From the IMG/VR virus record IMGVR_UViG_3300032167_006623: a stretch of 20,000 bases of DNA; one strand, 5' to 3'. This stretch comes from an uncultured virus (IMG/VR IMGVR_UViG_3300032167_006623). Taxonomy: Duplodnaviria > Heunggongvirae > Uroviricota > Caudoviricetes. The position numbers and the translations under genes were made by a program. The notes below the pieces were generated by a model. That model was not told the DNA's origin and did no database searches. It saw nothing but the letters and a program-made list of their open reading frames with translations. Positions 537 to 19,091 of the stretch are shown here, piece after piece. Position 1 is the stretch's first letter, and every line of letters starts with the position of its first letter.

Positions 537-571
537 ACGGCGAAAGACTCGCCGTCGGGTTTTAAATAAAA
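537..571 (+). promoter_or_regulatory. Hairpin-CGG-N7-ATAAAA element
   Basis: ACGGCGA aagac TCGCCGT CGG GTTTTAA ATAAAA; identical to the copy at 1455. Confidence 0.75.
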
Positions 572-591
572 AACGAGAGGAAATGATTATT

Positions 592-867
592 ATGACACAT
601 GCACAGTTTATGGAAAGAATTAACGCTATCACAGCACAAAGCATTGCTTATGCTACCGAACATGCTGAAGAAATCAAGCAGCGACGGGAAGAAAGTATAA
701 CCAACTCTGAGAAACTCATTGGAGCTATTCTCCTTGACGCTAAGAATGCACCTAAGAAATCTTGGACTGTATATGAAAGCTTCAAGAACAGAATTTCTGT
801 GACAGCAACAAGTTCTGAACAGTATGAAATCGCTATTCAGAAACTTACAAAAATTCTGAACGTATAA
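592..867 (+). CDS. Hypothetical protein
   Basis: ORF with GAGAGG RBS, followed by a hairpin at 875-898. Confidence 0.8.
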   Translation: MTHAQFMERINAITAQSIAYATEHAEEIKQRREESITNSEKLIGAILLDAKNAPKKSWTVYESFKNRISVTATSSEQYEIAIQKLTKILNV

Positions 868-927
868 AATACCAAAGCTGTCAGCCAACTGACAGCTTAT
901 TATTTCAAAGAAAGGATGATTTTAATT

Positions 928-1335
928 ATGTCAACTATCAACGTTGCGGGTGTCACATTCGCAAATCCCGATAACGAAAGCCGTCAGGAAATTCTGAAAA
1001 ATCTCGGCTTTGGCTATCATTATGCTATTCTTCAACAGACTACATTTGAGAATGAACGAGCTGTTGAGGTTTGGGTAGATAGCAAACTCATCGGATACGT
1101 TCCTCGAAAGGAACTCGGCAATCCTATGAGCTATGAAGCGATTCTGGTCGTCCAGATATGCTATAATGAAGAAACTGATACTTTTTATGCCATTCTCTCC
1201 CCTATTGAGCCATTAAGCTTTGAGCAGATGAATGAAATGTCAGAATTTTTCAAAGAACACCATCCTGAGCTACCCATTGTCTTTGACAAAAGGGCTTACG
1301 CAATAATGAAATACGTGCTTATACCGCAGTTGTAA
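928..1335 (+). CDS. HIRAN-domain protein
   Basis: VAGVTF..RQEIL..ENERAVEV..KLIGYVPR motifs; AAAGGA RBS. Confidence 0.75.
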   Translation: MSTINVAGVTFANPDNESRQEILKNLGFGYHYAILQQTTFENERAVEVWVDSKLIGYVPRKELGNPMSYEAILVVQICYNEETDTFYAILSPIEPLSFEQMNEMSEFFKEHHPELPIVFDKRAYAIMKYVLIPQL

Positions 1336-1357
1336 CTGCGGCGGATTTGCAATAAAA
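1324..1357 (+). promoter_or_regulatory. Hairpin-CGG-N7-ATAAAA element
   Basis: CCGCAGT tgta ACTGCGG CGG ATTTGCA ATAAAA. Confidence 0.75.
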
Positions 1358-1358
1358 A

Positions 1359-1451
1359 CAGATAATTGAGTAGGTGATTCAGTGTCACACGGAACGGTAA
1401 TAACCGCGAAGAGCTCGCCACGGCATTGCATTATTGGTGAAAGATTATCTG
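1359..1451 (+). ncRNA. Putative short structured RNA between two hairpin elements
   Basis: Closed by CAGATAAT/ATTATCTG, GC-richer interior, no evident gene. Confidence 0.35.
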
Positions 1452-1454
1452 AAT

Positions 1455-1489
1455 ACGGCGAAAGACTCGCCGTCGGGTTTTAAATAAAA
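1455..1489 (+). promoter_or_regulatory. Hairpin-CGG-N7-ATAAAA element
   Basis: Exact repeat of 537-571. Confidence 0.75.
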
Positions 1490-1533
1490 ACAGAGATTAT
1501 CATAATCTCACAACTATGAAAGGAATTGATACT

Positions 1534-1950
1534 ATGAAGAATACTATTCGCGTTGCAGGAGTAACATTTTCAAACCCAGACGGTACAAACCGTCAGGATA
1601 TTCTTAAGGGCCTTGGCATTGGCTGGAAAACAGCAAAGCTGAAGCAGACAACTTTCGAAGGTGAAAGAGCTGTAGAGGTTCGCATCAATGGTCATCTTGT
1701 TGGCTATGTTCCAAGAACACAGCTCAGCAATCCCCTCTCTTCGATGACAGAACTTACGGCAATGGTAGAATACTACCCCGCTAAGAAAGCAAATGGCGAC
1801 GGAAAGTGGTATGTGACACTTTCAGAGAGAATCAGACCAAGTTCTGCAGAATACGGTCTCATGAAGAAGCTCTGTGCAGAAGCAAAGCTCCCTATGCCTG
1901 CATATGACACCAGAGCCTACGCAGGTTACTGGGCTGTCGTAAAGGCTTAA
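1534..1950 (+). CDS. HIRAN-domain protein (paralog of 928-1335)
   Basis: VAGVTFSNPDGTNRQDIL..ERAVEV..LVGYVPR; visibly alignable with the upstream paralog. Confidence 0.75.
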   Translation: MKNTIRVAGVTFSNPDGTNRQDILKGLGIGWKTAKLKQTTFEGERAVEVRINGHLVGYVPRTQLSNPLSSMTELTAMVEYYPAKKANGDGKWYVTLSERIRPSSAEYGLMKKLCAEAKLPMPAYDTRAYAGYWAVVKA

Positions 1951-1957
1951 AAACACA

Positions 1958-1990
1958 GACCCCGGCTTAACAGCTGGGGTCTTATTTTTT
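1958..1990 (+). terminator. Intrinsic terminator
   Basis: AGACCCCGGC/GCTGGGGTCT stem followed by a T-rich tract. Confidence 0.6.
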
Positions 1991-2010
1991 ATTAAGAAAG
2001 GACTATAATT

Positions 2011-2280
2011 ATGAAAATTTTTACACATATTTTGAGTATTATACTCGGCATTGTCGTTATCGCATTTGCCCTTATCATCTCCCCTATCATAACCTTTGGT
2101 GCAGGTTATCTTGGCGGAATGATTCTTGAGTTAATTGTTGGAGATTGTATTACGGCTACTCTTAATACAATCTTTGACACAACTCGTTTCACAAATGACT
2201 TGATTCCACCTGTTTGTGCCGTACTTGCTGTACTTGGCAGTTTCTTCAAGCCATCTATTGAAAATAAGAAAGATGAATAA
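2011..2280 (+). CDS. Small membrane protein
   Basis: Long hydrophobic segments; GAAAGGA RBS. Confidence 0.8.
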   Translation: MKIFTHILSIILGIVVIAFALIISPIITFGAGYLGGMILELIVGDCITATLNTIFDTTRFTNDLIPPVCAVLAVLGSFFKPSIENKKDE

Positions 2281-2290
2281 GGGTGAAATT

Positions 2291-2500
2291 ATGCCAGAAA
2301 TAAAATATCCTGTTGATATCGACAAATACAAAGATTTAGTCGATGAACCTGAAGACTCGGCTATACCTAAAAATGTCATCATTGTGACAAACAATGAAGC
2401 TAAAAGCAGAGAGATTATTGCTAAGGCAATGATTGAAATGTACTGGAAACAATTGAATGAAAAGAATAAGCAACTGAGTGAAAAAATGGGTGATAATTAA
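2291..2500 (+). CDS. Hypothetical protein
   Basis: MPEIKYPVDID...; AAGGGTGA RBS; terminator follows. Confidence 0.65.
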   Translation: MPEIKYPVDIDKYKDLVDEPEDSAIPKNVIIVTNNEAKSREIIAKAMIEMYWKQLNEKNKQLSEKMGDN

Positions 2501-2524
2501 AGCTATGCTTCGGCATAGCTTTTT
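2499..2524 (+). terminator. Intrinsic terminator
   Basis: AAAGCTATGC ttcg GCATAGCTTT TT. Confidence 0.8.
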
Positions 2525-2885: not shown

Positions 2886-2889
2886 ACAC

Positions 2890-3571: not shown

Positions 3572-3663
3572 AAACACCTGACGGTGTTTCGGATTTATTA
3601 TAAAAGAATTATAATTCTTTCTCCTGATAATAAGCGTGAACGCTTATCGGGTGTTTTTTAAAG
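3572..3663 (+). promoter_or_regulatory. Two tandem hairpin elements upstream of the ncRNA cluster
   Basis: AAACACC tgac GGTGTTT CGG ATTTATT ATAAAA (3572) and ATAAGCG tgaa CGCTTAT CGG GTGTTTT TTAAAG (3630). Confidence 0.75.
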
Positions 3664-3846
3664 AATGAAGTGGGACGATGGTCCATAGCTGTCATTCGCC
3701 GGGTCCGAATTGCCCGTGACAGGCTGCTCCTGTTGAAGAAATGTGTCGCATTCGCAAGCTTGGCAGTGGCTAATTAAGCTTGCAAATTGGTGTTAATGCT
3801 GAATTCGCAGATGAGTTTAACACCGACTGCATCGCAGTATAAACAA
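3663..3846 (+). ncRNA. Structured RNA repeat, copy 1
   Basis: Aligns with 3854-4045, with compensatory stem changes. Confidence 0.6.
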
Positions 3847-3853
3847 GCGATAA

Positions 3854-4045
3854 GAGTGAAGTGGGACGACGGTCCATAGCTGTCACTCGACAGGTACAGA
3901 TTGCCTGAGACAGCGCTCCTGTCTGAATAAGCGTTGCAGCCTTTGTAAGCATAGGCTGAGGAAATAAAGAAGCTTACAAAATTCATAACAGATACTGAAT
4001 CTGCAGGGTAACTCAGTTATGGACTGTTTTTAACAGTATAAACAA
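3854..4045 (+). ncRNA. Structured RNA repeat, copy 2
   Basis: Shared GAAGTGGGACGAYGGTCCATAGCTGTCAYTCG ... GCTCCTGT ... CTGAAT ... CAGTATAAACAA. Confidence 0.6.
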
Positions 4046-4071
4046 CAATCAGGCAGCATGACTGCCGATAT

Positions 4072-4185
4072 GGGAACATAGCTTAGCGGATAAAGCAAGT
4101 CTTTGTAAGGGGTTCAACTCCCCTATCATCAACGGATTTGATACATGGACAGTCTACGCGGGTTCGAATCCTGCTGTTCTCACCA
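4072..4185 (+). tRNA. tRNA-like RNA (114 nt) with no assignable anticodon
   Basis: Acceptor GGGAACA/TGTTCTC+ACCA, D arm GCTT-AGCGGATA-AAGC, T arm GCGGG-TTCGAAT-CCTGC; the anticodon arm is replaced by an expanded branched insert. Confidence 0.75.
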
Positions 4186-4342
4186 GAAGCTGTCAGCAAT
4201 TGCTGCCGTACGGGCAATGGAGTGCGTACGGAGCGCAGACGGCGTCGATTGTGCCTGCATGTGCCGAAATCAGTGCCTCCATGCAGGGCGTCGACTTAAT
4301 TAAGCTCATTACTCATTATATACATTCCTCTCTCTCCTTTCT

Positions 4343-4388: not shown

Positions 4389-4428
4389 CACATTGAAGCA
4401 TTACATGAAGCTTCAATGTGATATTTTT

Positions 4429-4596
4429 TTTGTATCAATATTGTAACAAAAATGGGTATCTTTTTGTTACAATATTGCACACTGATTTTTATTGTTACAA
4501 TATTGTAACAATAAAAGCACCAAAATTGATACAATTTTGTTACACGAACTTTTTTGCTACAATTTTGTTACAATTTTGGTGCAAAAATTGTTACAC
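4429..4596. repeat. TTGTWACAA repeat array 2
   Basis: Core TTGTAACAAAAATGGGTATCTTTTTGTTACAA at 4441-4472 plus further units. Confidence 0.85.
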
Positions 4597-4598
4597 CC

Positions 4599-4627
4599 TT
4601 GACATTTGGTGACAAATGTATTATAAT
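4599..4627 (+). promoter_or_regulatory. Consensus sigma-A promoter
   Basis: TTGACA-N17-TATAAT, perfect match. Confidence 0.9.
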
Positions 4628-4660: not shown

Positions 4661-5647
4661 ATGGGAAAAACAATAAAAGCAATAGCCGACGAACTCGGCA
4701 TATCCAAACAAGCTGTATACAAGCGTGTTACAGGCAAGCTTAACACCGTATGTGCTCCACATACATATATGGAGAACAACGTCATGTTTCTGGATGAAGA
4801 AGGCGAAGCTATTGTAAAAAATGATTTTAAAAATAAACCATGTGCTACTCCCCTATTTCGTACGGAGCAAATACTTATGTCATATGGAGCTAATACGTCA
4901 CCATATCCAAATCCAACGGTTCCTTACGTACAACATACGGAACAGATACGGAATAACTCCGATAATATGCCTCAAAATCCATACGGAGCACTCCCCTATC
5001 CTACTCCGAATCAATCCATTCAATACGTATCCAATACGGAGCATATCCAAACCACTCCTGTTTCAAATACGGAACACTCCGGCATTCCTATTCAAAACAC
5101 ATACGGAACACCGCAGCAATTCACTCCTAATCCGTATCCCAATCCGTATACGGAGCAATCCGTATCTAATCCTAATATGGATACGCATACGGAGCAAATA
5201 TCAATTCCTGATACGGAGCAAATACAACCGACATACGGAGCTGATACGGAAGATGTGAATTTATTACGTATGCAGCTTGAGGAAATCAAAGAAAAAAACC
5301 ATGAAACTGAGATTGAACTTGTTAAAGCTAATGCTGAAAAAGAGAAATATGAAGAAATAATCAATCAGCTTAACCAAAGACTCAAAGATAAAGATTCACA
5401 AATCATGGAACAGCGTTTGTTAATAGAAAAAACCGACAATGAACGTAAGATTTTAACGGCTTCATTGTTTAGAAACAATGAATTTTTAAGGAAGCTATTG
5501 CAGCTGCCGTTAGCTAAACGTATTTTTGATTGGAAAAATATCCAAAAACGACTGATGACAGAGCAGGATGACATTTCAAATGACATAATAGGGGAATCAG
5601 ATATTGATGTTTCACTATTTGATGAAAATATTAGTAAAAAGGATTGA
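4661..5647 (+). CDS. HTH + low-complexity linker + coiled-coil protein, pSK1 Par / DUF536-like plasmid maintenance protein
   Basis: N-terminus KTIKAIADELGISKQAVYKR (HTH), C-terminal coiled coil ending LAKRIF; GAAGGA RBS. Confidence 0.65.
   Translation: MGKTIKAIADELGISKQAVYKRVTGKLNTVCAPHTYMENNVMFLDEEGEAIVKNDFKNKPCATPLFRTEQILMSYGANTSPYPNPTVPYVQHTEQIRNNSDNMPQNPYGALPYPTPNQSIQYVSNTEHIQTTPVSNTEHSGIPIQNTYGTPQQFTPNPYPNPYTEQSVSNPNMDTHTEQISIPDTEQIQPTYGADTEDVNLLRMQLEEIKEKNHETEIELVKANAEKEKYEEIINQLNQRLKDKDSQIMEQRLLIEKTDNERKILTASLFRNNEFLRKLLQLPLAKRIFDWKNIQKRLMTEQDDISNDIIGESDIDVSLFDENISKKD
4935..5250. repeat. Intragenic ATACGGA iteron array
   Basis: 11 ATACGGA and 3 TCCGTAT copies counted; ATACGGA occurs in all three codon phases. 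Confidence 0.8.
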
Positions 5648-6014: not shown

Positions 6015-6047
6015 ACGGTTTTACAACCGTTCGGGGTGTATATAAAA
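6015..6047 (+). promoter_or_regulatory. Hairpin-CGG-N7-ATAAAA element
   Basis: ACGGTT ttac AACCGT t CGG GGTGTAT ATAAAA. Confidence 0.7.
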
Positions 6048-6241: not shown

Positions 6242-6931
6242 ATGAGAATCGCTGATACTATTGATATTTTTAAAGAAACTGCAGACGCTGTGTGTGTTAC
6301 TACAAATGGAATCGTTAAGCGTGACGGTTCAGCTGTAATGGGTGCAGGTATTGCAAGATTGGCTGATGCTAAATATAAGCTTGCATCAAAGCTTGGTGCA
6401 ATGCTTAGAAAATCAGGCAATCATTGCTATGATATGGGTCTTTATGATAATAAGCATATCGTTACTTTTCCAACCAAAAAACATTGGAAAGATATGAGCA
6501 GCATTACGCTCATTAAGCAAAGCTGTCATGAACTTGTAGCTATGGCTGACAAGAACAACTGGAGTAATGTTTTGCTGCCGGCTATAGGCTGTGGTCTTGG
6601 TCAGCTTGATTTTGAGACACAGGTAAAGCCTGCAATCGAGACTATTCTTGATGACAGATTTACAATTTGTTTTCTCACCAACGCCCGCCAGTCTGATAAA
6701 GCAGGGGAGTGTGCTGATAAAAAATTCGAGCATAACGGTTATGTGATTTCCCAGTGCGGAAGCAATCATCATGTTATGATTTCCAAGGATGGAAAGATGG
6801 TATTTCATTCACAGGTTGACCACGATATGAACCGTGAAGAACTCATCAAAGTTTTTGACGGCTATATCGAGCTCACAAAACACATTGATTTTGCCAAAGA
6901 GTTTTACAGAAATGAAGGGAGAATAGATTAA
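6242..6931 (+). CDS. Macrodomain (ADP-ribose binding/hydrolase) protein with extra C-terminal domain
   Basis: TTNG..VMGAGIA, FPTKKHW, LPAIGCGLGQL motifs. Confidence 0.85.
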   Translation: MRIADTIDIFKETADAVCVTTNGIVKRDGSAVMGAGIARLADAKYKLASKLGAMLRKSGNHCYDMGLYDNKHIVTFPTKKHWKDMSSITLIKQSCHELVAMADKNNWSNVLLPAIGCGLGQLDFETQVKPAIETILDDRFTICFLTNARQSDKAGECADKKFEHNGYVISQCGSNHHVMISKDGKMVFHSQVDHDMNREELIKVFDGYIELTKHIDFAKEFYRNEGRID

Positions 6932-8919: not shown

Positions 8920-9114
8920 ATGACCAAAGTAAAATTCTTTTGGAATAATTCACAAGAAGCTCTTGAAGCTGATGTCAATAAATTTATTGAACAGCTTGAG
9001 ATTAAGCATTTTGCCGTGAATGTTGTGAGCATTTCTTATTCTACAAGCAAAACTGTTTCGAATTATCAGATTGACCACCATTGTTGTTTATGCTATCGTT
9101 GTGAAAATATGTAA
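8920..9114 (+). CDS. Small protein, Cse60/DUF2758-like
   Basis: KVKFF....EALEADVNKFI...VVSISYS pattern. Confidence 0.55.
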   Translation: MTKVKFFWNNSQEALEADVNKFIEQLEIKHFAVNVVSISYSTSKTVSNYQIDHHCCLCYRCENM

Positions 9115-9142
9115 TTGCTTTGCAATCGGTTTGTCTCTAAAA
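9114..9142 (+). promoter_or_regulatory. Hairpin element (short stem)
   Basis: ATTGC ttt GCAAT CGG TTTGTCT CTAAAA. Confidence 0.55.
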
Positions 9143-9163: not shown

Positions 9164-9634
9164 ATGTCAAAAGTATTTATTTCGGGAACAGCAGGTTTTG
9201 GAACAGGGAATAAACTCACATCACTTCCTCAGCCTGTTATGGATATGCTTATGAAGTTAATCCATGATGGTGATGAAATCCTTGTGGGTGATTGTCAGGG
9301 TGTTGATACTCTTGTTCAGGAAGTCCTTAAGCGAGCTAAATATCCTAATGTAACAGTATATTGCTCAGGTTCTACTTGTCGCAATGTTCTTAATTCAAGT
9401 TGGCCTGTAAAGCATATTCAGGTTCCAAGAGGATACACAGGTAGAGCGTTTTATGCTGTTAAAGATAACGCAATGGCTATAGCTGCTGATTCGGGCATTG
9501 CTATTTGGGACGGCAAGTCTGTTGGTACAGGTAATAACATCAAAAACCTCACTTTCAGAGGCAAAACTGTTACTGTATTCCGTACGGACTTGAATAAAAT
9601 CGAATGTCATCAGCCTAAAACGCTTGGTGAATAA
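9164..9634 (+). CDS. SLOG-superfamily (YspA/DprA-like) nucleotide-binding protein
   Basis: VFISG, VGDCQGVD, KDNAMA..AD, WDGKSVGT motifs. Confidence 0.75.
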   Translation: MSKVFISGTAGFGTGNKLTSLPQPVMDMLMKLIHDGDEILVGDCQGVDTLVQEVLKRAKYPNVTVYCSGSTCRNVLNSSWPVKHIQVPRGYTGRAFYAVKDNAMAIAADSGIAIWDGKSVGTGNNIKNLTFRGKTVTVFRTDLNKIECHQPKTLGE

Positions 9635-10404: not shown

Positions 10405-10437
10405 ACATAACTCCGTTATGTCGGACTTGTAATAAAA
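10405..10437 (+). promoter_or_regulatory. Hairpin-CGG-N7-ATAAAA element
   Basis: ACATAAC tcc GTTATGT CGG ACTTGTA ATAAAA. Confidence 0.75.
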
Positions 10438-10459: not shown

Positions 10460-10885
10460 ATGGCAAGCTTCAGAGGAGAAAAATACTTTTTAAGCAATAT
10501 GTACCCATGTCCTGTGACTATTAAGATTAAAGGTGAGCTTATTACCTTTAAAAGCTCTGAGTCCGTATTTCAGGCACTTCGCAGCCCTGACCGTCTCAGA
10601 GAATTTATTCCGCTCAATGGCTTTGAAGCGAAAAAACACGCTAAAAGCTGTACACGTCGTGCTGATTGGTTTGATGTGAGCCTTGATGTAATGATGTATG
10701 CACTCAGATGCAAATTTACCCAAAATCCTGACCTTGCGGCAAAGCTCATAGCCATTGATGATGACATTGTGGAAATCAATGAATGGCATGATACTTTTTG
10801 GGGCGTTTGTAATGGAGTAGGGGAGAACCATTTGGGCAAATTGCTTATGCAGCTCAGAGACGAGCTTCGAGCAGCGGCTCATTAA
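10460..10885 (+). CDS. NADAR (YbiA-like) family protein
   Basis: FLSNMY, SSESVFQA, KFTQNPDL, E.N.WHDTFWG, GENHLGKLLM.LR. Confidence 0.9.
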   Translation: MASFRGEKYFLSNMYPCPVTIKIKGELITFKSSESVFQALRSPDRLREFIPLNGFEAKKHAKSCTRRADWFDVSLDVMMYALRCKFTQNPDLAAKLIAIDDDIVEINEWHDTFWGVCNGVGENHLGKLLMQLRDELRAAAH

Positions 10886-11607: not shown

Positions 11608-11674
11608 GCAGTTGCTTGTAACTGCCAGAATTTCAATAAAATAGTCAGCTGTAAAGACGTTAAAAACAGAGAAA
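11608..11674 (+). promoter_or_regulatory. Hairpin element plus GTCAGCTG leader
   Basis: GCAGTTG cttg TAACTGC CAG AATTTCA ATAAAA; leader at 11644. Confidence 0.7.
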
Positions 11675-11951: not shown

Positions 11952-12130
11952 ATATCACTCACGTGATATCGGATTTATATTAAAAAATAACGTTGAAAAC
12001 AATCATGAATGATTGTCGGAAATGTTATAAACAATAATTTTTCCGAAAAATAATGACTGAAAACAGTCATCGGGAAAGTTATAAAAGAACCACGAAAAAC
12101 AGTTTCACAACTGTCGGAATGGTAATAAAA
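11952..12130 (+). promoter_or_regulatory. Four tandem hairpin elements
   Basis: Copies at 11952, 11999, 12053 and 12099, each with a different stem but the same CGG-N7-WTAAA. Confidence 0.8.
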
Positions 12131-12177
12131 AATCAGAGGTAACAATGCCTCACAACTTTGAAAGGAAGTATAATTTT

Positions 12178-12474
12178 ATGAAAACTTTTATCGTATCTAC
12201 AAAGATGATTATTGCCAAGAACATTGCATGTAAAGCTCTCAAGGCTGCTGACAACAATGACGTTACACACGGTCTTTACAAGAAGGCGTGTATGGACGGC
12301 GGCAAGATTGTAATCACAAACATTGCAGAAATGCAGGCATGGCAGACAGCTATCAGCGCTTACAAGGCAGCTAACACTACTGAAGGCAAGGTTCTCAGAG
12401 TGCTTAAGAGAAATGCTACACTTGGTCTTAAGAGCCGTCTTGACGCAGCTACAACTCCTGCTACAGCTGCATAA
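12178..12474 (+). CDS. Hypothetical protein (paralog of 13302-13604)
   Basis: IAK....KALK...N....L.KKA...G pattern; AAAGGA RBS. Confidence 0.8.
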   Translation: MKTFIVSTKMIIAKNIACKALKAADNNDVTHGLYKKACMDGGKIVITNIAEMQAWQTAISAYKAANTTEGKVLRVLKRNATLGLKSRLDAATTPATAA

Positions 12475-12706: not shown

Positions 12707-12769
12707 ACAGACTCCGTCTGTCTGATTTTCAATAAAATAGTCAGCTGTAAAGACGTTAAAACAGAGAAA
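12707..12769 (+). promoter_or_regulatory. Hairpin element plus GTCAGCTG leader
   Basis: ACAGAC tcc GTCTGT CTG ATTTTCA ATAAAA; leader at 12740. Confidence 0.7.
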
Positions 12770-12782
12770 CGGAGAGAATACT

Positions 12783-13154
12783 ATGAGAAATTTTGAAAAT
12801 ATGGAAGCAATTGCAACAGAAATCGAAGCAATTATTTCAAGAGAAGGGGAGTATCAGAATGAAAATATTGATACCAATGCACCTCTTTTCTTACAGATTG
12901 CAAGAAATACACAGGACAAAAAGGCTGTGATTGAACACATAACAGCTGCATTGACTAACGATAAGCATGAAATTGATGAAATCTATCATTATCTTGAATA
13001 TAGTGAAGATGAAATAGCATCTGATTACGAGTTTGAAAAGCATACAAACAACAATGTATCAGATGAAACAGCTAATCGTTTTGCAGCAATAGAACGCATA
13101 ATCACAGCTGTTGAGGATTGTGGTAAGAAGCTTCTTGCCACAATTTCTGAATAA
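12783..13154 (+). CDS. Acidic hypothetical protein
   Basis: GGAG RBS; hairpin terminator follows. Confidence 0.8.
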   Translation: MRNFENMEAIATEIEAIISREGEYQNENIDTNAPLFLQIARNTQDKKAVIEHITAALTNDKHEIDEIYHYLEYSEDEIASDYEFEKHTNNNVSDETANRFAAIERIITAVEDCGKKLLATISE

Positions 13155-13216
13155 AACAATCAAAAAAAACTAATCAGAAGCTCACGCTTCTGATTAGTTT
13201 TCCATAGTCTCTGACA

Positions 13217-13289
13217 GCAAGCGTGACCGCTTGCCGGATTTGCAATAAAAAGAATAATTGTCAGCTGTAAAGACGTTAAAACAGAGAAA
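13217..13289 (+). promoter_or_regulatory. Hairpin element plus GTCAGCTG leader
   Basis: Near-identical to 2665-2734. Confidence 0.75.
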
Positions 13290-13301
13290 AGAGGAAATGT
13301 T

Positions 13302-13604
13302 ATGTTTGTTATTTTTGTAAAAAATTTCATCGCAAAATGCGTAGTTTTCAATGCACTTAAGTCATACATTGACAATGAAACAGCTGTTGCTCTTCGCAAG
13401 AAAGCCCGTGAACAGTGTGATTCAGGCGAATTTGTACTTGACACATTTGTTGAAGTAGAAGAATGGAATAAGATTCTGCTTGCTTATAACCCTAAGACTA
13501 AGGCAGAACAGACCGTTCGTGAAGCAATGCTCAGAAGTGTCACAAACGAAATCGAAGATGTCAAGTGTATAGAGCTTGACTGGCGTTATGCTTGTATGGA
13601 TTAA
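13302..13604 (+). CDS. Hypothetical protein (paralog of 12178-12474)
   Basis: GAGGA RBS; alignable with its paralog. Confidence 0.8.
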   Translation: MFVIFVKNFIAKCVVFNALKSYIDNETAVALRKKAREQCDSGEFVLDTFVEVEEWNKILLAYNPKTKAEQTVREAMLRSVTNEIEDVKCIELDWRYACMD

Positions 13605-13618
13605 GAAAGGATGGGACT

Positions 13619-14014
13619 ATGAAAAATTTTACTACAACGGCTAAAATGAGCTATGATGAACTCAAAGGGGTGTTCCCTATGGAAGAAAGCTTCACTGTCA
13701 ACAATATTGATATTGAATATCTTGGCATCACCTTTGACGGTGAAATGGCTTATGAATTTGATGGTCTTATTGTTGACAGAGACCGCCTTTTGGAGCTGAT
13801 TTATGCAATGTGTCTTGCTGATGACATCATGCTTGATAAAGGCGTTCTGCTCACAGAAGCCACTGAAACTGATGATTTCAGCTTTATTGAAGAACTTCAG
13901 AAGCTTGTTTCAAAGCTTGAAACATTTGAATTCTGTCAGCCAAGAACAGAAGCTCTGGATGAAATTATCAGACTTGCCAGAAAATATGACAGAATACCAT
14001 CTGTCGAATTGTAA
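13619..14014 (+). CDS. Acidic hypothetical protein
   Basis: AAAGGA RBS; terminator at about 14021-14055. Confidence 0.8.
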   Translation: MKNFTTTAKMSYDELKGVFPMEESFTVNNIDIEYLGITFDGEMAYEFDGLIVDRDRLLELIYAMCLADDIMLDKGVLLTEATETDDFSFIEELQKLVSKLETFEFCQPRTEALDEIIRLARKYDRIPSVEL

Positions 14015-14072
14015 CAAATAAAAATCAGAAGCGAAAAAGGCTTCTGATTTTTTATTTTAAGCCTTACGGCAA

Positions 14073-14145
14073 GCAGTTGTGAACAACTGCCGGGATTTCA
14101 ATAAAAAGAACAATTGTCAGCTGCAAAGACGTTAAAACAGAGAAA
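14073..14145 (+). promoter_or_regulatory. Hairpin element plus GTCAGCTG leader
   Basis: GCAGTTG tgaa CAACTGC CGG GATTTCA ATAAAA; leader at 14116. Confidence 0.75.
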
Positions 14146-14156
14146 TGAGGAAATGT

Positions 14157-14567
14157 ATGTATACTTTTAAAATTGAAAATATGACCAAGGATGCAATTCT
14201 TGAAGCAATGATTGCTGCTTATAACGAACACAAGGGTCGTTTTGCAATCAAGCTTTCCGAAGAAGAAACAGCTTTCGTCAGAGCTTTTGAATACAAGCCT
14301 GACCACAAAGACTGTGAATGGTTCTTTGTAGACGGTACTGAGTATCCATGGGTAAGCGATGATAGTCTTGAAAAGCTTGCTGGTTACTTTGCAAACTATA
14401 GCAAAGAAAAGGCAGAGCTTGCTGAAGAAAAGGCTAAGCTCAGAGCTTATGCAGAGGAACTTAAGGCAATTACTGATAAAAATTCCGAAGAATACCGTGA
14501 AAAATTCGGATATTACAGTGATTGGCATAAGGACCTGTACGGCAGACGTCCCAGAAACATCATATGA
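14157..14567 (+). CDS. Hypothetical protein with C-terminal YSDWHKDLYGRRPR motif
   Basis: GAGGA RBS; terminator at about 14574-14611. Confidence 0.8.
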   Translation: MYTFKIENMTKDAILEAMIAAYNEHKGRFAIKLSEEETAFVRAFEYKPDHKDCEWFFVDGTEYPWVSDDSLEKLAGYFANYSKEKAELAEEKAKLRAYAEELKAITDKNSEEYREKFGYYSDWHKDLYGRRPRNII

Positions 14568-14664: not shown

Positions 14665-14874
14665 AAACACCTGACGGTGTTTCGGATTTATTATAAAGAG
14701 TTACGATAAAACAAACAAAAATGTTTGTCGGTTGTAATTCAAAAGATACGATAAAACAAACAGGAATGTTTGTCGGTTGTGTCTTAAAGAAATGCCGATG
14801 TTGCGAACGGGGTCTGCTTGACAGATGTCCAGCTCATAATGCAATCAAGAATGATTGCCGGTGTTTTAAGAAAG
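14665..14874 (+). promoter_or_regulatory. Four hairpin elements upstream of the ssb leader
   Basis: Copies at 14665 (same as 3572), 14711, 14756 and 14841. Confidence 0.75.
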
Positions 14875-14893
14875 GAAATGTAATAAGTGAGAA

Positions 14894-14996
14894 GTAGGTT
14901 CCTGCAGGGATGTTCATACCTACATAAACAAGTTACATTAACATTCTTCGATAGTTAATCCTGAAAGTGAGTTCCTGTCTGGCGATTCATACTCAC
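14894..14996 (+). ncRNA. Two covarying 30-nt stem-loops in the ssb leader
   Basis: GTAGGT-TCCTG-N8-TTCAT-ACCTAC and GTGAGT-TCCTG-N8-TTCAT-ACTCAC. Confidence 0.5.
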
Positions 14997-15089
14997 ACAC
15001 AAAAGAGTAAGCTATCATGTACGTCATAAACATAGGGCGGTGTTACATGCCGCCCAAAAATTAAAAACAATTTTTTGGAGGTAATCTAT

Positions 15090-15512
15090 ATGAACATGAA
15101 CAACTTTTCCGTACTCAGAGGACGTCTTACTGCTGACCCTGCAATCTTTAACAACAAAGATGGCTCCAGCAAGGTAAAGTTCACCATCGCTTGTGAAAAC
15201 AACTATAAGAACAAGGAAGGTAAGCGCGACGTTCAGATGATTCCCGTTGAAGCTTTTGTTAAGGCTGATTACGACAAGTCTCCTTTCGCAAAGATTCACA
15301 AGGGCGACAAGGTAAGCGTTGAGTGTTCGCTCAGAACAAACAACTATGAGAAGGACGGTCAGATGGTTTACTCCACTGTAGTCTTCGTTGAAGGCATTCA
15401 GTTCGAGGAAAGCAAGTCCGTTACTGATGCACGTCTTGCGGCAAGAGACGCAGACGCTGCAACAGCTGCTGCTGCAACAATTGCAGAAGCTCCTGCTGAG
15501 GCTCAGGCATAA
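15090..15512 (+). CDS. ssb: Single-stranded DNA-binding protein lacking the canonical acidic tip
   Basis: N...LRGRLTADP, KFTIA, KGDKVSVE..LRTNNYEKDG OB-fold motifs; GGAGG RBS. Confidence 0.9.
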   Translation: MNMNNFSVLRGRLTADPAIFNNKDGSSKVKFTIACENNYKNKEGKRDVQMIPVEAFVKADYDKSPFAKIHKGDKVSVECSLRTNNYEKDGQMVYSTVVFVEGIQFEESKSVTDARLAARDADAATAAAATIAEAPAEAQA

Positions 15513-15539: not shown

Positions 15540-15571
15540 AAAGCCAAGGCTTCGGCCTTGGCTTTTTTTTT
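15540..15571 (+). terminator. Intrinsic terminator
   Basis: AGCCAAGGC ttcg GCCTTGGCT TTTTTTTT. Confidence 0.9.
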
Positions 15572-15592
15572 CAACAGCTCGCAAGCTCGCAG

Positions 15593-15626
15593 TATCGCTT
15601 CGCAGCGATACGGAATTTCAATAAAA
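15593..15626 (+). promoter_or_regulatory. Hairpin-CGG-N7-ATAAAA element
   Basis: TATCGCT tcgc AGCGATA CGG AATTTCA ATAAAA. Confidence 0.75.
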
Positions 15627-15655
15627 TATTGAAATAAAAAAAGGAGAAATGTATT

Positions 15656-16033
15656 ATGTCAACAATAACAGGTTTTATAGGGATAACCGATATAGGAGCC
15701 ATTTTTGTAAACTTGGAACACACCATTTCTGTCTCTGATAATGGAACAACACAAGAACATATTGATGAATTATTTGAAATATGTCAAGAAATATGTGAAG
15801 ACGAAGTTGAAACCATTTACTGTATATTTGACAGTAAAATCGACCTTGACACATGTGAAATCATAATATCTGACGGTTCATATGAAAATGGAACAGAACG
15901 GATAAACGACAATGCTATGTATGTTTACAGTGAAGAATATGCTGATTTCATAGCAAGTGTATCCGCAACTCTTGAAAATGGAGAAGAATTCTTCAAAGAT
16001 TTGAATGAAAATTACTTATCCTTTGACTATTGA
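15656..16033 (+). CDS. Highly acidic protein (DNA-mimic candidate)
   Basis: Very D/E-rich with almost no K/R; AAGGAG RBS. Confidence 0.8.
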   Translation: MSTITGFIGITDIGAIFVNLEHTISVSDNGTTQEHIDELFEICQEICEDEVETIYCIFDSKIDLDTCEIIISDGSYENGTERINDNAMYVYSEEYADFIASVSATLENGEEFFKDLNENYLSFDY

Positions 16034-16201
16034 TTCTGCTATCAATCAATTTTTGACAAATCAGACACGTTTCGTGTCTGATTTTGTTTTCTTATTCTCA
16101 GATTAAAATGTAGTTGCAATCTTCAAGGGGATGGGGCGGTCTCATCGCCGCAGTTGTAATGAGCTACCGAGTACCTCATTACAACAATAGCTTCCGTTTT
16201 C

Positions 16202-16317: not shown

Positions 16318-16352
16318 TCTGACCTGTTCGGTCAGACGGTTTTTCAATAAAA
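16318..16352 (+). promoter_or_regulatory. Hairpin-CGG-N7-ATAAAA element
   Basis: TCTGACC tgttc GGTCAGA CGG TTTTTCA ATAAAA. Confidence 0.75.
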
Positions 16353-16373: not shown

Positions 16374-16658
16374 ATGAAAGAACCCGGATTTGTCAAAGAA
16401 GCTCGTGAATATGGTATGTCAGAAAGAGACATTGATTTCTTGAAATCAGTATACGAGCGTCATAAGAAAATAAACTCAGATGATAATGACTGTGAGCGAT
16501 TTTGCAAAACAGCAATACAAGAGGATATTCATCCTGATGATATTGCTCCAGCTGTTGCTTTGATTGAAAAACACCGTCATGCTTCTCGTAATAACGATAA
16601 GTCTTTTGATATCAATGACCTAAAGAAGCAGTTGCAGAAAGACTCTGCGACAAAATAA
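16374..16658 (+). CDS. Hypothetical protein
   Basis: GAAAGGA RBS. Confidence 0.75.
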   Translation: MKEPGFVKEAREYGMSERDIDFLKSVYERHKKINSDDNDCERFCKTAIQEDIHPDDIAPAVALIEKHRHASRNNDKSFDINDLKKQLQKDSATK

Positions 16659-16687: not shown

Positions 16688-17011
16688 ATGCCAATAATAA
16701 GAAAATGTATTCATCTCTCAAGTGATGAAAAAGTAATGCTTACAAAAGCCGTAACGAACATTATTGATGAGTGTCTCATTGGAACAGATAGTGACATGTA
16801 TGATATTTACAGACATATCATTGTTAAGCTTGATGCGCTCACAATCAAACCTGCCCGTATACCGGGTCATATTGAAGAGCATTATTCTCTGGACATTGTT
16901 GGCGGTGAATACGACAGCTGTCTTTTTGCACTCAGCAATTTTGCTGACAACACAGACATGCTTCAGACTAAAATTCGCAATGCACCGAATGTTTGCGAAA
17001 AATATATCTGA
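16688..17011 (+). CDS. Hypothetical protein
   Basis: GAAAGGA RBS; terminator at about 17038-17072. Confidence 0.75.
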   Translation: MPIIRKCIHLSSDEKVMLTKAVTNIIDECLIGTDSDMYDIYRHIIVKLDALTIKPARIPGHIEEHYSLDIVGGEYDSCLFALSNFADNTDMLQTKIRNAPNVCEKYI

Positions 17012-17264
17012 CTTTTTAAGTAACCTATATGTAAATAAAAATCAGCTGCTCACGCAGCTGATTTTTCTTTTTGATAACTGTGAAACCATAGCAAGTCTTT
17101 CAGACTATTGCAGCTTTGCTGCAGTATAATTTGTCTCCGTGCGGAGCTTCCCGGTCACAGACCAGTTCAGCACCGCCATTCCGCCAAATTATATCCACAG
17201 CTTTATAAAACTTATTATGTGACAAGAACCAATCCAATCAGAAACGTTGTTTCAATACCCAATA

Positions 17265-17298
17265 ACGAGCCTGACGGCTCGTCGGGTATCAAATAAAA
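17265..17298 (+). promoter_or_regulatory. Hairpin-CGG-N7-ATAAAA element
   Basis: ACGAGCC tgac GGCTCGT CGG GTATCAA ATAAAA. Confidence 0.75.
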
Positions 17299-17330
17299 AG
17301 CTTATTTGCTTAAATCGGAGGAAATGTAAT

Positions 17331-17537
17331 ATGTTTATTATCAACTTAATCAAAGCATTGGTTATCGGTATTCATGATGAAATGAAATGGAATGGTCAGA
17401 ACCTCAAGAATGCTATTCTTGAAGAATACTACATGATTAAAAATGTAATGGGTCTTGACCTTTACGTTAAATACATGAATGGCACTGCTGTTGAAGGCGT
17501 TGACTATTTTGAAAATATCGACCATGTTTGCTGTTAA
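17331..17537 (+). CDS. Hypothetical protein
   Basis: GGAGG RBS; terminator follows. Confidence 0.75.
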   Translation: MFIINLIKALVIGIHDEMKWNGQNLKNAILEEYYMIKNVMGLDLYVKYMNGTAVEGVDYFENIDHVCC

Positions 17538-17750
17538 TGATGAACCCGGACGCATTTGCGTCTGGGTTTTTCTTTTTCTTGACCCGTAATTTAATATCTC
17601 GTGACTATCTCGTGAAATCAACACGATATTCACAAAATAAGCAAAAGATATCAAATTTCATTTTTATATGAATAACGTTTTGTTCTAATACAATAATACA
17701 AGTCCTTTTGGGGACTTATTCTTTTGTATTAAAATTGCAATTCTTGCAAA

Positions 17751-17783
17751 ATGCCCCTGCGGGGCATCGGATTTGCAATAAAA
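17751..17783 (+). promoter_or_regulatory. Hairpin-CGG-N7-ATAAAA element
   Basis: ATGCCCC tgc GGGGCAT CGG ATTTGCA ATAAAA. Confidence 0.75.
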
Positions 17784-17811
17784 ATTCTATATTGAAAGGA
17801 AAAGAGAATAA

Positions 17812-18054
17812 ATGTTACAGGAATACGCTGAAATCAGAAACAGAATAGGGGAGCCACGTTATAATGAAATAACTGCATTTCTTGACGCCAATCCTGAATT
17901 TGATTTATCCGATGTATACTACAATCCATATGTTCACGCCATGAGTGTTCAGTGGGCAAGAAATACATTCGGAAAAACAGTATACGACGAGACTGACAAC
18001 GGTCTCTACAAATTCGATATCGTTGCTGACGACGGCGACGACTTACCGTTTTGA
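17812..18054 (+). CDS. Small protein with an SSB-like C-terminal tip (DDGDDLPF)
   Basis: Paralog of 18070-18312 with an added acidic tail. Confidence 0.8.
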   Translation: MLQEYAEIRNRIGEPRYNEITAFLDANPEFDLSDVYYNPYVHAMSVQWARNTFGKTVYDETDNGLYKFDIVADDGDDLPF

Positions 18055-18069
18055 AAGGAGAAATAAACA

Positions 18070-18312
18070 ATGACTGTTATCAACGCTTATGAAAATATCA
18101 AAAACGAAATCGGACAGAACCGATTAAATGAAATGTGGGCTTATCTTCATGCTAACCCAAATCGTATGTTTTCTGATATTTTCTATAACAAAGAAATCCA
18201 TGCAGAAAGCATCCAGTGGGCTAAGGATACACTTGGTTTCACATATGCTTCCGATGATGAATTTGAAATCATCTCCGCCGAACTTGCAAAGGTCAACGAA
18301 ATATGTGCTTGA
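18070..18312 (+). CDS. Small protein (paralog of 17812-18054)
   Basis: Y..I.N.IG..R.NE...L.ANP....SD..YN...HA.S.QWA..T.G shared. Confidence 0.8.
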   Translation: MTVINAYENIKNEIGQNRLNEMWAYLHANPNRMFSDIFYNKEIHAESIQWAKDTLGFTYASDDEFEIISAELAKVNEICA

Positions 18313-18328
18313 GAAAGGAATAATATTT

Positions 18329-18703
18329 ATGAAAAAATATGAACTTGTTGAAACATTTACTTTTGTACTTTATGACAACGTGTCTGTAACAAAGTCTACC
18401 AAAACTGCTGACCTCGGTAGAATGGTACCAAAACATTTTATTGTACCATGCAATGACCCTGAAAACAAATATTCAAACGGAGAATACACAGATGGTTACT
18501 CCGATGGTACACATAGCGAATATTGCTTCTGTTTTGATAATCTGCTTGATTGTTACACACATTGTCAATTTGATAAGACCAGATGGTCTGAAATCAATAT
18601 CGACAAACTTGATGAAGCAGACAAACTTCTTGCACAGCAGATACTCAATAAGATTGCTGAATCAAATGATTGTTTTCCACAGCAGTTGTCCAAGACCATC
18701 TAA
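18329..18703 (+). CDS. Hypothetical protein
   Basis: GAAAGGA RBS. Confidence 0.75.
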   Translation: MKKYELVETFTFVLYDNVSVTKSTKTADLGRMVPKHFIVPCNDPENKYSNGEYTDGYSDGTHSEYCFCFDNLLDCYTHCQFDKTRWSEINIDKLDEADKLLAQQILNKIAESNDCFPQQLSKTI

Positions 18704-18889
18704 ACCTCATATTCCGATTTAAGCCATCAGCTTAAGTCGGAATTTTTTCTGCTTTTAACAAAGCAGCGGGTTGTGTACAAAGGATAAGAAATACGCCAAC
18801 ACATTCTCACAAAAGGTCTCAACCTACGGGTTGAGATTTTTTTATTTATAATACGACAACATTTATTGCTATTTTCGATTTCTAAGATA

Positions 18890-19091
18890 ACGCTCCTTAC
18901 GGAGCGTCGGGATTCCAATAAAGAAACCCAATAGCAAGTTCACAGATGCTGTAAACGATGTTGTCATCAGAACTTGTCTTGATTTCTTGAAATTTGCTCT
19001 CGGGGAGCAAACAGAGTTCCAATAAACGAGTCTGAAAGGCTTGTTACTTACAAACCCATCTGTCAGCTGAAAAGACGTTAAAACAGAGAAA
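18890..19091 (+). promoter_or_regulatory. Two hairpin elements plus GTCAGCTG leader
   Basis: ACGCTCC ttac GGAGCGT CGG GATTCCA ATAAAG (18890); TTTGCTC tcggg GAGCAAA CAG AGTTCCA ATAAAC (18993); leader at 19062. Confidence 0.7.

Follow-up and report, generated by a model that had tools for sequence, protein, structure and literature searches.

Background

Promoters recognised as specific DNA hairpins are, to our knowledge, known only from N4-like phages, and we know of only one mechanism by which a plasmid is expressed early, while still single-stranded and open to attack by host defences, namely that of the long Frpo promoters read by the host RNA polymerase (RNAP). Here we analyse a stretch of 20,000 nucleotides (nt), hereafter the window, of the IMG/VR record IMGVR_UViG_3300032167_006623, filed as an uncultured virus, which holds 30 copies of an element composed of a short hairpin, the triplet CGG (or C-N-G) at its foot, a 7-nt spacer and a TAAA box. 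An original prediction, made from the sequence alone, had proposed that this family is a compact promoter system read on single-stranded DNA (ssDNA) or extruded cruciforms. Several described systems come close to it, and we begin by setting the family against each.

The virion RNAP of phage N4 needs a hairpin of 5-7 base pairs (bp) in which the stem bases are free; gyrase extrudes it and ssDNA-binding protein (SSB) maintains it (PMC4496689). The promoters of the virion RNAPs of N4 and other Schitoviridae resemble the elements of the window in their 5-7-bp DNA hairpin, free stem, conserved loop letters and position before early genes of an incoming element, and phage LUZ7 likewise has tandem copies upstream of its ssDNA-binding protein gene. 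The stem foot plus C-G-G also agrees with the N4 distance from loop centre to start; the base equivalent to the N4 start is the G of CGG, and the listed starts of RNA contigs (see below), whose ends are imprecise, lie 15-23 nt further downstream, past the box. Unlike N4, the window has a loop that is mostly 4 nt (3 nt in 5 of the 29 copies first listed) and not 3, a second fixed box 7 nt on, and 30 copies in 20 kb as against 3-9; its carrier is best explained as a conjugative plasmid, not a podovirus. The comparison with N4 made in the original prediction holds for the geometry and fails for the enzyme, the candidate RNAP being a beta::beta' two-barrel protein and not a T7-like one.

The setting recalls the Frpo promoters in the leading regions of F and ColIb-P9, which are also found on a conjugative element, in one orientation, upstream of ssb and anti-defence-type genes, and also use DNA structure as the signal. 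However, an Frpo spans several hundred nt, and its imperfect stem-loop gives host sigma-70 RNAP duplex -35 and -10 boxes (PMC8708921). In the window the hairpin has 18 nt, CGG and TAAA are unpaired, and a private polymerase is the likely reader. The organisation is that of the PeSLs of T4-like phages, dozens of promoter plus stem-loop cassettes before small ORFans in a plastic region that differs by whole cassettes (PMC2839356, PMC4122927). PeSLs have near-consensus sigma-70 boxes, a variable stem-loop position and terminator activity, whereas in the window the position is fixed in 30/30 copies, the box is not sigma-A-like and RNA reads through.

With respect to the enzyme, the non-virion two-barrel RNAP of jumbo phage AR9 can use ssDNA and reads the template strand; early promoters of jumbo phages consist of an AT box, six nucleotides and the start (PMC7598289, PMC5312081). 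The early promoters of phiKZ and AR9 share with the window an AT-rich box near -10, a start about 6 nt behind it and a non-canonical two-barrel RNAP of the element itself; in contrast, they have no hairpin and no CGG, and their RNAPs are split into several subunits, while the candidate here is one chain of about 2000-2200 amino acids (aa) in a conjugation module. Viewed in this way, the box is present in 30/30 copies and a start at +7 in two of the six RNA contig starts lying past a box. Orf6 of the killer plasmid pGKL2 (Rpb2::Rpb1) is also a plasmid-encoded single-chain fusion, beta-like then beta'-like, with a private promoter set that has its own upstream motif; it differs in being eukaryotic, carried by linear plasmids and much smaller, and we know of no hairpin in yeast killer-plasmid promoters. 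Further two-barrel RNAPs that are fused or otherwise unusual have been published (PMC2919709). Primases of plasmids are transferred together with the DNA, and the same source describes N4-like RNAPs as found only in phages (PMC5512222). The closest parallels are PeSLs in organisation, N4 in recognition, Frpo in setting and the jumbo-phage and killer-plasmid RNAPs in enzyme class, and the system of the window lacks defining features of each. In the literature outside subscription journals, we found no description of a hairpin-CGG-N7-TAAA promoter, nor of a two-barrel RNAP of a conjugative plasmid with hairpin promoters.

Results and discussion

Thirty hairpin elements on one strand

The window, found in animal faecal and gut metagenomes, has a G+C content of 37.5% and carries 38 small open reading frames (ORFs) on the + strand and one leftward ORF at its left edge. 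The hairpin plus CGG-N7-TAAA family observed in it is confirmed. All 29 copies listed in the original prediction are present at their coordinates, each with a perfect hairpin; the list was one short, an extra copy at 18749 bringing the total to 30, and all 30 lie on the + strand, as had been claimed for the shorter list. Stem lengths fall in the predicted range (7 bp in 23 of the 29 listed copies, 6 bp in four, 8 bp and 5 bp in one each), and the loops of these copies are of 4 nt in 19, 3 nt in five, 5 nt in four and 6 nt in one. A C-N-G triplet abuts the stem in 28/29, copy 6015 having a 1-nt gap; over all 30 copies the triplet is CGG in 27, CAG in two and CTG in one. The 7-nt spacer begins with R and then TTT (T in 19, 24 and 25 of 30), and its length is fixed, as predicted: counted from the C, AAA occupies +12 to +14 in 30/30 and T stands at +11 in 27/30. 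The base after AAA is A or G in 28/30, and five copies have degenerate boxes (ATAAAC twice, TCAAAA, AGAAAG, ACAAAG).

We list the copies below. Bit scores are those of a covariance model of the motif trained on 19 window copies, "leader" is a conserved 30-nt sequence described further on, and bracketed numbers give the distance of an RNA contig start past the box.

537..571, + strand: ACGGCGA/aagac/TCGCCGT, CGG, N7, ATAAAA; precedes ORF 583-867; 33.6 bits
1324..1357, + strand: 7-bp stem, loop tgta, CGG, ATAAAA; begins 12 nt upstream of the stop of ORF 916-1335; 40.3 bits
1455..1489, + strand: hairpin identical to 537; precedes ORF 1516-1950; 28.7 bits
2665..2698, + strand: loop tgac; then the leader and ORF 2748-2885; 47.8 bits
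2984..3017, + strand: loop tgaa, box TTAAAG; 35.7 bits
3572..3605, + strand: precedes a non-coding RNA region; RNA contig start 3615 (+10)
3630..3663, + strand: tandem with 3572; an RNA contig reads through
6015..6047, + strand: 6-bp stem, 1-nt gap to CGG; precedes a short terminated non-coding unit; 34.1 bits
6185..6219, + strand: 8-bp stem, 3-nt loop; precedes macro-domain gene 6242-6931
9114..9142, + strand: weakest copy, 5-bp stem, box CTAAAA; precedes ORF 9164-9634; missed by the model at E<=1
10405..10437, + strand: loop tcc; precedes NADAR gene 10460-10885
11608..11641, + strand: degenerate, CAG triplet, sole possible G-T pair; leader next; 20.1 bits
11952..11985, + strand: first of four in the tandem array upstream of ORF 12145/12178-12474
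11999..12032, + strand: second of four in the same array; box ATAAAC
12053..12086, + strand: third of four in the same array; RNA contig start 12093 (+7)
12099..12130, + strand: fourth of four in the same array; 6-bp stem
12707..12737, + strand: CTG triplet, 6-bp stem; leader next; 24.6 bits
13217..13250, + strand: hairpin identical to 2665; leader next; 46.8 bits
14073..14106, + strand: RNA contig start 14108 (+2)
14665..14698, + strand: first of four in the array upstream of the ssb leader; RNA contig starts 14705 (+7) and 14709 (+11)
14711..14744, + strand: second of four in the ssb array; box TCAAAA; RNA contig start 14754 (+10), from a different study
14756..14789, + strand: third of four in the ssb array
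14841..14874, + strand: fourth of four in the ssb array; box AGAAAG
15593..15626, + strand: precedes ORF 15656-16033; this promoter+ORF cassette is missing from the relative in run X9
16318..16352, + strand: precedes ORF 16374-16658
17265..17298, + strand: precedes ORF 17331-17537; 45.2 bits
17751..17783, + strand: 3-nt loop; precedes ORF 17812-18054
18749..18782 (hairpin 18749-18766), + strand: not in the earlier list; CTGCTTT/taac/AAAGCAG, CGG, N7, ACAAAG; 25.1 bits, E 3.9e-5
18890..18923, + strand: box ATAAAG; 43.8 bits
18993..19027, + strand: degenerate, CAG triplet, box ATAAAC; then the leader and ORF 19105-19254; 15.2 bits

The sequence part of the motif is far from chance. CGG-N7-WTAAAR has 24 matches in the window against 0.55 expected and a maximum of three in shuffles; 22 of them are family copies, the other two being a chance match within a gene (9959) and copy 10405 read in reverse. 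A hairpin of at least 5 bp abuts 21 of the 24 window matches, compared with two of 170 chance matches in a control of 157 unrelated loci (766,669 nt). Scanning the window with the covariance model recovered 28 of the 29 listed copies, missing 9114, and added the copy at 18749 (model match 18746-18784); there were 29 matches on the + strand and two weak ones on the - strand (15.6 and 13.9 bits), including copy 10405 read backwards.

The original prediction had also pointed to bottom-strand loops of the form G-N(N)-A. Among the 20 four-nt loops, 15 do end with A, but only 10 begin with G, so that the pattern is borne out in part. On the top strand the frequent loop letters are TGAC, TGAA, TTAC and TCAC, and because the letters of the 4-nt loops are conserved, the loop is probably contacted by whatever reads the element. 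The hairpin spans 13-19 nt, with the conserved CGG and TAAA outside the stem. Folded as RNA, the copies have a mean energy of -7.2 kcal/mol; as DNA hairpins they average -5.5 kcal/mol on the top strand and -5.6 kcal/mol on the bottom strand, values so nearly equal that they give no pointer to the functional strand.

Covariation of the stems

As had been predicted, the stems vary while staying paired: across the 19 copies in register, 95.5% of stem cells pair as against 49.3% in shuffles, none of the 500 shuffles reaching the observed value. All seven stem pairs have changed on both sides, four Watson-Crick pair types are found at every position, and one-sided (G-T) changes are absent from these copies. 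There is no G-T among 205 pairs of the motif stems, compared with 13 G-U among 259 pairs in the 21 + strand terminators of the window (Fisher p = 8e-4; p = 0.0046 if degenerate copy 11608 is taken to close with G-T, as it possibly does). Because the covariation is exclusively Watson-Crick, in contrast to the G-U-bearing terminators of the same window, and because G-U would be tolerable in an RNA helix but not in a DNA hairpin or in a cruciform formed by both strands, selection of the hairpin at the level of DNA is supported.

Placement among genes

The original prediction expected copies to avoid genes, and all 30 are intergenic, two of them touching a stop codon. Each of the 17 gaps of at least 100 nt holds one copy or more, compared with one of the 20 shorter gaps. 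A predicted terminator stands between the preceding stop and the hairpin in 22/30 copies, in line with the claim that most copies follow a terminator. Where an ORF lies directly downstream, the end of the box is 11-51 nt from the start codon (77 nt in one copy), and the Shine-Dalgarno (SD) core begins no nearer than +7 from the box. Arrays of four copies precede ssb (14665-14874) and ORF 12178-12474 (11952-12130). A simple terminator scan flags 8/30 copies, yet the CGG parts the stem from the short T run.

RNA contigs at the copies

We aligned to the window Logan contigs from three metatranscriptome runs of two studies; the counts below rest on 21 listed pieces, and 50 further exist. These contigs are unstranded, their ends are imprecise and they possibly include some DNA. 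Six of the 21 start 2-11 nt past a box, at five different copies and in both studies (3615 at +10, 12093 at +7, 14108 at +2, 14705 at +7, 14709 at +11 and 14754 at +10; binomial p ~1e-6). The deepest contigs (depth about 14) run from just past the first copy of the ssb array to shortly before the ssb terminator, through three downstream copies. Because RNA contigs read through six copies in all (3630, 12053 in part, 12099, 14711, 14756 and 14841), the hairpins are not efficient terminators. None of the 21 listed pieces covers the segment from CGG to box of any first copy. The contigs are weak to moderate evidence on the start itself, which they fix no closer than at or before +2 to +11, and the lack of contig cover in other parts of the window is not evidence of silence. 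A promoter role for the family, as originally proposed, is supported by its position, the tandem arrays and the RNA contig starts.

A relative on a conjugative megaplasmid

No phage or plasmid was matched by the window in Megablast, and no close relatives were found in viral contigs through its helix-turn-helix (HTH), macro and P0002-family proteins. Relatives of window protein P0001 were found neither in genome contigs nor in metagenome contigs nor among longer proteins; a P0002-family alignment matched nothing in 401 genomes of the family of G003; and SSB led in metagenome contigs to 13 distant loci, none with the motif. The covariance model gave nothing convincing in phages SP-15, LIS04 and MTATph1, in genomes G001 and G002 or in three metagenome-assembled genomes (MAGs), and the motif is absent from the DUF6075 region of plasmid OY725857. 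The exact 17-mer CGGATTTGCAATAAAAA gave chance matches only, at 7 loci in viral contigs and at least 120 in genome contigs. One Ruminococcus MAG contig (L087:2980-3400, - strand) has tandem repeats of about 155 nt with CGGATTTGCAATAAAAA and a AAATTGCAACACTTT word; this word resembles the repeat arrays of the window, and the repeats carry no hairpin.

Window proteins P0002 and P0020 are found on contigs of up to 188,868 bp, and their homologs on contigs of 206-266 kb. A family alignment of the HTH protein led to an IMG/VR record of 198,537 bp, called complete, which we refer to as G406. It carries syntenic homologs of SSB (82% identical), NADAR (64%), macro (60%), the 9164-9634 protein (57%), P0002 (55%) and the HTH protein (35%). 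The covariance model has 19 matches in G406, on one strand only and mostly at 55-102 kb, and a direct scan for hairpin-CNG-N7-box found 22 copies on one strand and three weak ones on the other, which bears out in a relative the single orientation that was expected across the replicon. The G406 copies have 7-bp stems and mostly the loop TTGC and lie upstream of a ribosome-binding site (RBS) and ATG; its ssb is preceded by the same unit of tandem promoters and structured leader as in the window.

The original prediction had drawn a parallel with conjugative leading regions, and G406 supports such a context: it encodes a MobL relaxase and a type IV secretion system (T4SS) coupling protein (in two ORFs), and the motif block begins beside the transfer genes, with ssb. 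The block, on the - strand, meets the transfer block, on the + strand, at about 101.6 kb, ssb being the first motif-driven unit; within the transfer block there are no copies. Other genes are topoisomerase III, a Rep_3 initiator beside TTGTWACAA repeats, a ParM-like protein, toxin-antitoxin and C5 methylases, and no capsid or terminase match was found in G406. Since G406 is by its annotation a conjugative plasmid, we conclude that the window element is not a phage. The window is best explained as a section of the region, probably the leading one, that serves the establishment of a conjugative megaplasmid of some 189 kb, carried by a bacterium of the animal gut. Strong SD sites and the nearest homologs suggest a Firmicute host. 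We had also considered a large phage, with macro homologs in SP-15, LIS04 and MTATph1, a tRNA-like gene and a leader in common with a 231-kb phage contig, and rejected this in view of the G406 annotation.

A giant polymerase beside the coupling protein

The original prediction had named an element-encoded polymerase among the possible readers, and a strong candidate is found in G406, although it is not of the T7-like type: among 187 ORFs of at least 90 aa, no T7-like RNAP domain was matched (Pfam, E<=1e-5), and the sole RNAP is of beta/beta' type. This ORF (141645-147602, 1985 aa) directly follows the coupling-protein genes and matches RNA_pol_Rpb2_6 (E 3.8e-7) and RNA_pol_Rpb1_2 (E 2.7e-4) in Pfam and, weakly, a PHROG named RNA polymerase beta subunit. 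At E<=0.001 we found 393 representative relatives of the polymerase core; of the 150 listed, all but a small minority are 1800-2900 aa long. An alignment of 24 sequences shows IGDKICD..GNKGVIS and FDGDFDGDS, in beta-like then beta'-like order, with the aspartates D1288, D1290 and D1292 invariant. Against the PDB, the profile matched 149 sequences at E<=0.01 (best E 5.6e-16), and the best 60 of the 149 are RNAP largest subunits (beta', Rpb1, gamma and equivalents). Judged by homology, the 1985-aa protein is a single-chain two-barrel RNAP homolog of the beta::beta' type, with predicted catalysis.

A second family member of 2171 aa, P0240, shares 51% identity with the G406 polymerase over 1579 residues and has both motifs. 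Its contig is of 188,868 bp, the same size as the longest contig with P0002 and P0020, and because of this identity the window's own replicon very likely encodes a P0240-type polymerase. Relatives about 30% identical are encoded in 23 further IMG/VR records (67-155 kb). Of the carriers tested (G406, G407, G422, G424 and G427), all five have a coupling protein over the cut-off and none an HK97 capsid; in G406, G407 and G422 the polymerase and coupling-protein genes are adjacent. Given the coupling protein in 5/5, the relaxase in G406 and the lack of an HK97 capsid match, the five look like conjugative plasmids. All five are filed in IMG/VR as complete viruses, and several such "complete viral" records would thus be conjugative plasmids.

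In G427 (155.5 kb, 29.6% G+C), whose polymerase is about 30% identical, hairpins of 6-8 bp abut CGA instead, 22 on one strand and four on the other, and in 12 of the 22 copies a WRTRAW box follows after 7 nt, then an RBS and ATG. The signal in G407 is weaker (16 versus 6 by strand). The architecture is therefore kept while the letters follow the lineage of the polymerase, and the loop differs between the window and G406, which is the pattern expected of a promoter with a private reader.

A proposed establishment regulon

From these observations, we hypothesize that a conjugative megaplasmid uses the 30 elements as the private promoters of its establishment regulon, read by the plasmid family's own polymerase on ssDNA or on a cruciform, and on balance we favour this explanation. 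Each cassette would consist of a DNA hairpin of about 7 bp with free stem sequence, a lineage-specific loop (TGAC/TGAA in the window, TTGC in G406), C-N-G at the hairpin foot, a T-rich 7-nt spacer and a TAAA(A/G) box. Transcription would begin a few nt past the box; for a start at +7, the approximate positions would be -12 to -7 for the box and -40 to -23 for the hairpin. The hairpin would be recognised in its folded form, either on the transferred single strand or as a cruciform extruded from supercoiled DNA, and its most likely reader would be the giant single-chain beta::beta' RNAP whose gene adjoins that of the T4SS coupling protein. The result would be immediate expression, in the incoming plasmid and without a host sigma factor, of ssb, macro and NADAR (ADP-ribose-removing) genes, RNase H, small RNAs and many small ORFs. 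We stress that reading of the motif by this polymerase, the state of the DNA, the transferred strand, the exact start site and the timing are each inferred.

A more specific proposal, to which we give somewhat less than even odds, concerns a family of large conjugative plasmids in gut anaerobes. Their polymerase, encoded in the transfer operon and possibly delivered with the DNA in the manner of plasmid primases, would read hairpin, C-N-G and box on the incoming single strand or on cruciforms, turn on establishment and anti-defence genes ahead of any host response, and may also prime the complementary strand, with the letters co-evolving with the polymerase lineage: CGG/TAAA with loop TGAC or TTGC in the window and G406, CGA/WRTRAW in G427.

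Several points weigh against a private promoter system. If the origin of transfer (oriT) lies at the divergent junction of G406 and tra enters last, the transferred strand is the coding strand; it therefore could not template these mRNAs as ssDNA, and hairpin-CNG would then suit priming of the complementary strand better. The pLS20 establishment genes pose the same problem, their entering strand, it has been argued, likewise being unable to template mRNA as ssDNA (PMC8708921). A cruciform mode, or a dual role as promoter and primer in the manner of Frpo, would resolve it. Secondly, the loop resembles a -35 core and stands at precisely the right distance, 17 bp, from TAAAAn; host RNAP may thus read the elements as well, on duplex DNA. 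Thirdly, in addition to the properties of the Logan contigs given above, their starts scatter (+2, +7, +7, +10, +10 and +11), and the one at +2 conflicts with a strict start at +7. Finally, the window replicon is tied to the polymerase by the identical contig size of 188,868 bp, and the link between polymerase and promoter is a co-occurrence in only two to three lineages: the covariance model found no CGG/TAAA-type copies in the 23 other carriers, and the variant motif, looked for in two of them, was clear in G427 and weak in G407.

If the private promoter reading is true, conjugative elements can bring a private transcription machine with them, the motif supplies a sequence rule for locating their early anti-defence genes, and the promoter and its polymerase make a compact orthogonal pair usable as a tool. 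Our data suggest that a second hairpin-promoter system exists, independent of the first, and link it to giant RNAPs borne by plasmids, a previously unstudied family with 393 sequence clusters in public data.

Alternative explanations

The alternative that survives best, although we judge it unlikely, is that the elements are host sigma-A promoters with a built-in stem-loop, similar to PeSLs, with the loop as -35 core and TAAAAn, 17 bp away, as a weak -10; the palindromic arms would act as an attenuator, a hot spot of recombination or a switch that senses supercoiling, and not as a recognition element of a private polymerase. Placing TAAAAn at -12 to -7 puts a 4-nt loop at -34 to -31, in the register of TTGACA, and with the closing pairs four copies read TTGAAA, TTTACA, TTCACA and TTAACA. 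The two RNA contig starts at +7 suit a sigma-type distance, and the differences between relatives concern whole cassettes, joined at copies of the motif or leader. In some of the PeSLs, which are promoter plus stem-loop cassettes upstream of ORFans, the stem-loop overlaps the -35 (PMC2839356). In the 17-bp register, however, A is found at -11 in 30/30 copies but T at -7 in only 4/30, which makes host sigma-A alone unlikely, and -35 and -30 are free stem bases. The invariant letters are C-G and AAA, not those of a -35; among the matches listed in a sigma-70 scan, only copy 6015 of the 30 lies in this register. Nor does this explanation account for the fixed 7-bp stem with Watson-Crick pairs only. 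G427 keeps the architecture with a box that is not of the sigma-A type, and RNA contigs read through six copies.

Next comes the possibility, which we also consider improbable as the whole account, that the elements are priming signals on the transferred strand, the hairpin plus C-N-G being a start for primase (or for the plasmid RNAP) of the G4, ssi or sso type, either alone or together with a promoter function. Escherichia coli DnaG starts at CTG beside the G4 hairpin, and C-N-G sits at the hairpin foot here, a fit to the G4 type in anatomy only. The transferred strand enters 5' first and so needs repeated priming, and an sso of ICEBs1 has reportedly been published. The hairpin is selected as DNA without G-T pairs, the elements keep to one strand throughout (20 kb in the window, about 50 kb in G406), and if tra of G406 enters last, the transferred strand carries hairpin-CGG as written. 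Frpo is both promoter and primer source, according to a title cited in PMC8708921. What priming alone leaves unexplained is the fixed TAAA box 7 nt off, the placement before an RBS with the SD core never nearer than +7, the tandem arrays before the most highly covered genes, and RNA contigs that start just past the box and span whole genes; moreover, the transfer block of G406 has no copies. Priming sites remain a live alternative or a second function.

We give still less credence to a geometry like that of N4, in which the G of CGG, at 11-12 nt from the loop centre, would be the first transcribed base, the TAAA box would be transcribed at +9 to +14, and the 5' ends past the box would reflect a drop in coverage or processing. 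At the left end of phage N4, whose sequence we read, 3-4 nt separate the hairpins in front of gp1 and gp2 from a downstream G, and the N4 start is 11 nt from the loop centre (PMC4496689); transcription in LUZ7 begins at a G that lies 13-14 nt away from the centre, and the gene of its ssDNA-binding protein is under tandem promoters (PMC9163698). In the window, adding C-G-G to a stem of 7 bp places the last G at this distance, and at a depth of 3-14 a contig start 15-23 nt past the true 5' end is plausible. On the other hand, none of the listed RNA contigs extends over CGG-N7-box where the promoter copy is a first one, it would have to be explained separately why AAA is invariant within a transcribed leader, the candidate enzyme is two-barrel with no T7-like RNAP domain among the scanned G406 ORFs, and the two-barrel RNAPs of jumbo phages use an AT box, 6N and the start (PMC5312081).

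An RNA-level element (a processing site, 5' stabiliser or attenuator) or an attC-like structure-specific site of cassette recombination is very improbable: 8/30 copies look terminator-like in the simple scan and joints of cassette gain and loss lie near motif and leader copies, but G-U is absent from 205 stem pairs as against 5% in terminators, RNA contigs of first copies exclude the hairpin while downstream copies are read through, the 18-nt perfect hairpin lacks the extrahelical bases that attC has, and the window contains no integrase gene.

Leaders, repeats and cassette turnover

The 30-nt leader GTCAGCTGTAAAGACGTTAAAACAGAGAAA lies immediately upstream of the RBS of six genes (2705-2734, 11644-11674, 12740-12769, 13260-13289, 14116-14145 and 19062-19091). 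It also occurs, exact and before an RBS, in two otherwise unrelated IMG/VR contigs of 85.7 and 231 kb (L001:10001-10030 and L002:10001-10030, both - strand), both without the hairpin motif, and may be a portable leader for translation or stability. The structured leader of ssb, about 230 nt (window 14860-15085), is conserved in G406 (101200-101420, - strand) and contains two hairpins of the CUGUCUGGCGA type and a third, GGGCGG..CCGCCC, with a U-rich run after it; the 397-nt stretch 14699-15095 around it has a z-score of -5.55. It may be an attenuator or an autoregulatory site.

TTGTWACAA repeats form arrays with a phasing of about 11 bp at 297-487, 4424-4598 and 19302-19555 in the window and at 77749-79056, 86202-86359 and 92560-92671 in G406, where one adjoins the Rep_3 initiator gene; they are likely to be plasmid iterons or operator arrays. 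Just after the second window array, at 4599-4627, stands a perfect TTGACA-17-TATAAT promoter, the sole clearly host-type promoter in the window, upstream of the HTH-protein gene (4661-5647) and a DUF6075 gene.

Region 3661-4305, covered by RNA contigs, holds two units of about 190 nt (starts 3661 and 3852) whose first 62 nt are 84% alike, and a tRNA-like gene at 4072-4182 (111 nt, Rfam 43.2 bits) with insertions of 25 and 16 nt, which ARAGORN did not call; G406 has a tRNA-like sequence at the matching place. In the transfer block of G406, a 1369-aa AAA+ (Clp-like) ORF at 128966-133075 has LAGLIDADG and Hom_end homing-endonuclease domains, which suggests an intein.

The P0002-family protein fold (AlphaFold pLDDT 72.5) had no PDB match at E<=0.001. 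The relative in run X9 (about 95% identical) and one RNA contig differ from the window by whole promoter+ORF cassettes lost, replaced or reordered, at 12158-12414, 12743-13172, 13289-14565, 15570-16043 and 18312-18778, with several of the joints in or beside motif or leader copies. The ORF behind the four tandem copies at 11952-12130 (12145-12474) encodes a small helical protein of a family of 18, for which the AlphaFold model (pLDDT 72.5) matches no PDB fold, and has a distant paralog at 13302-13604.

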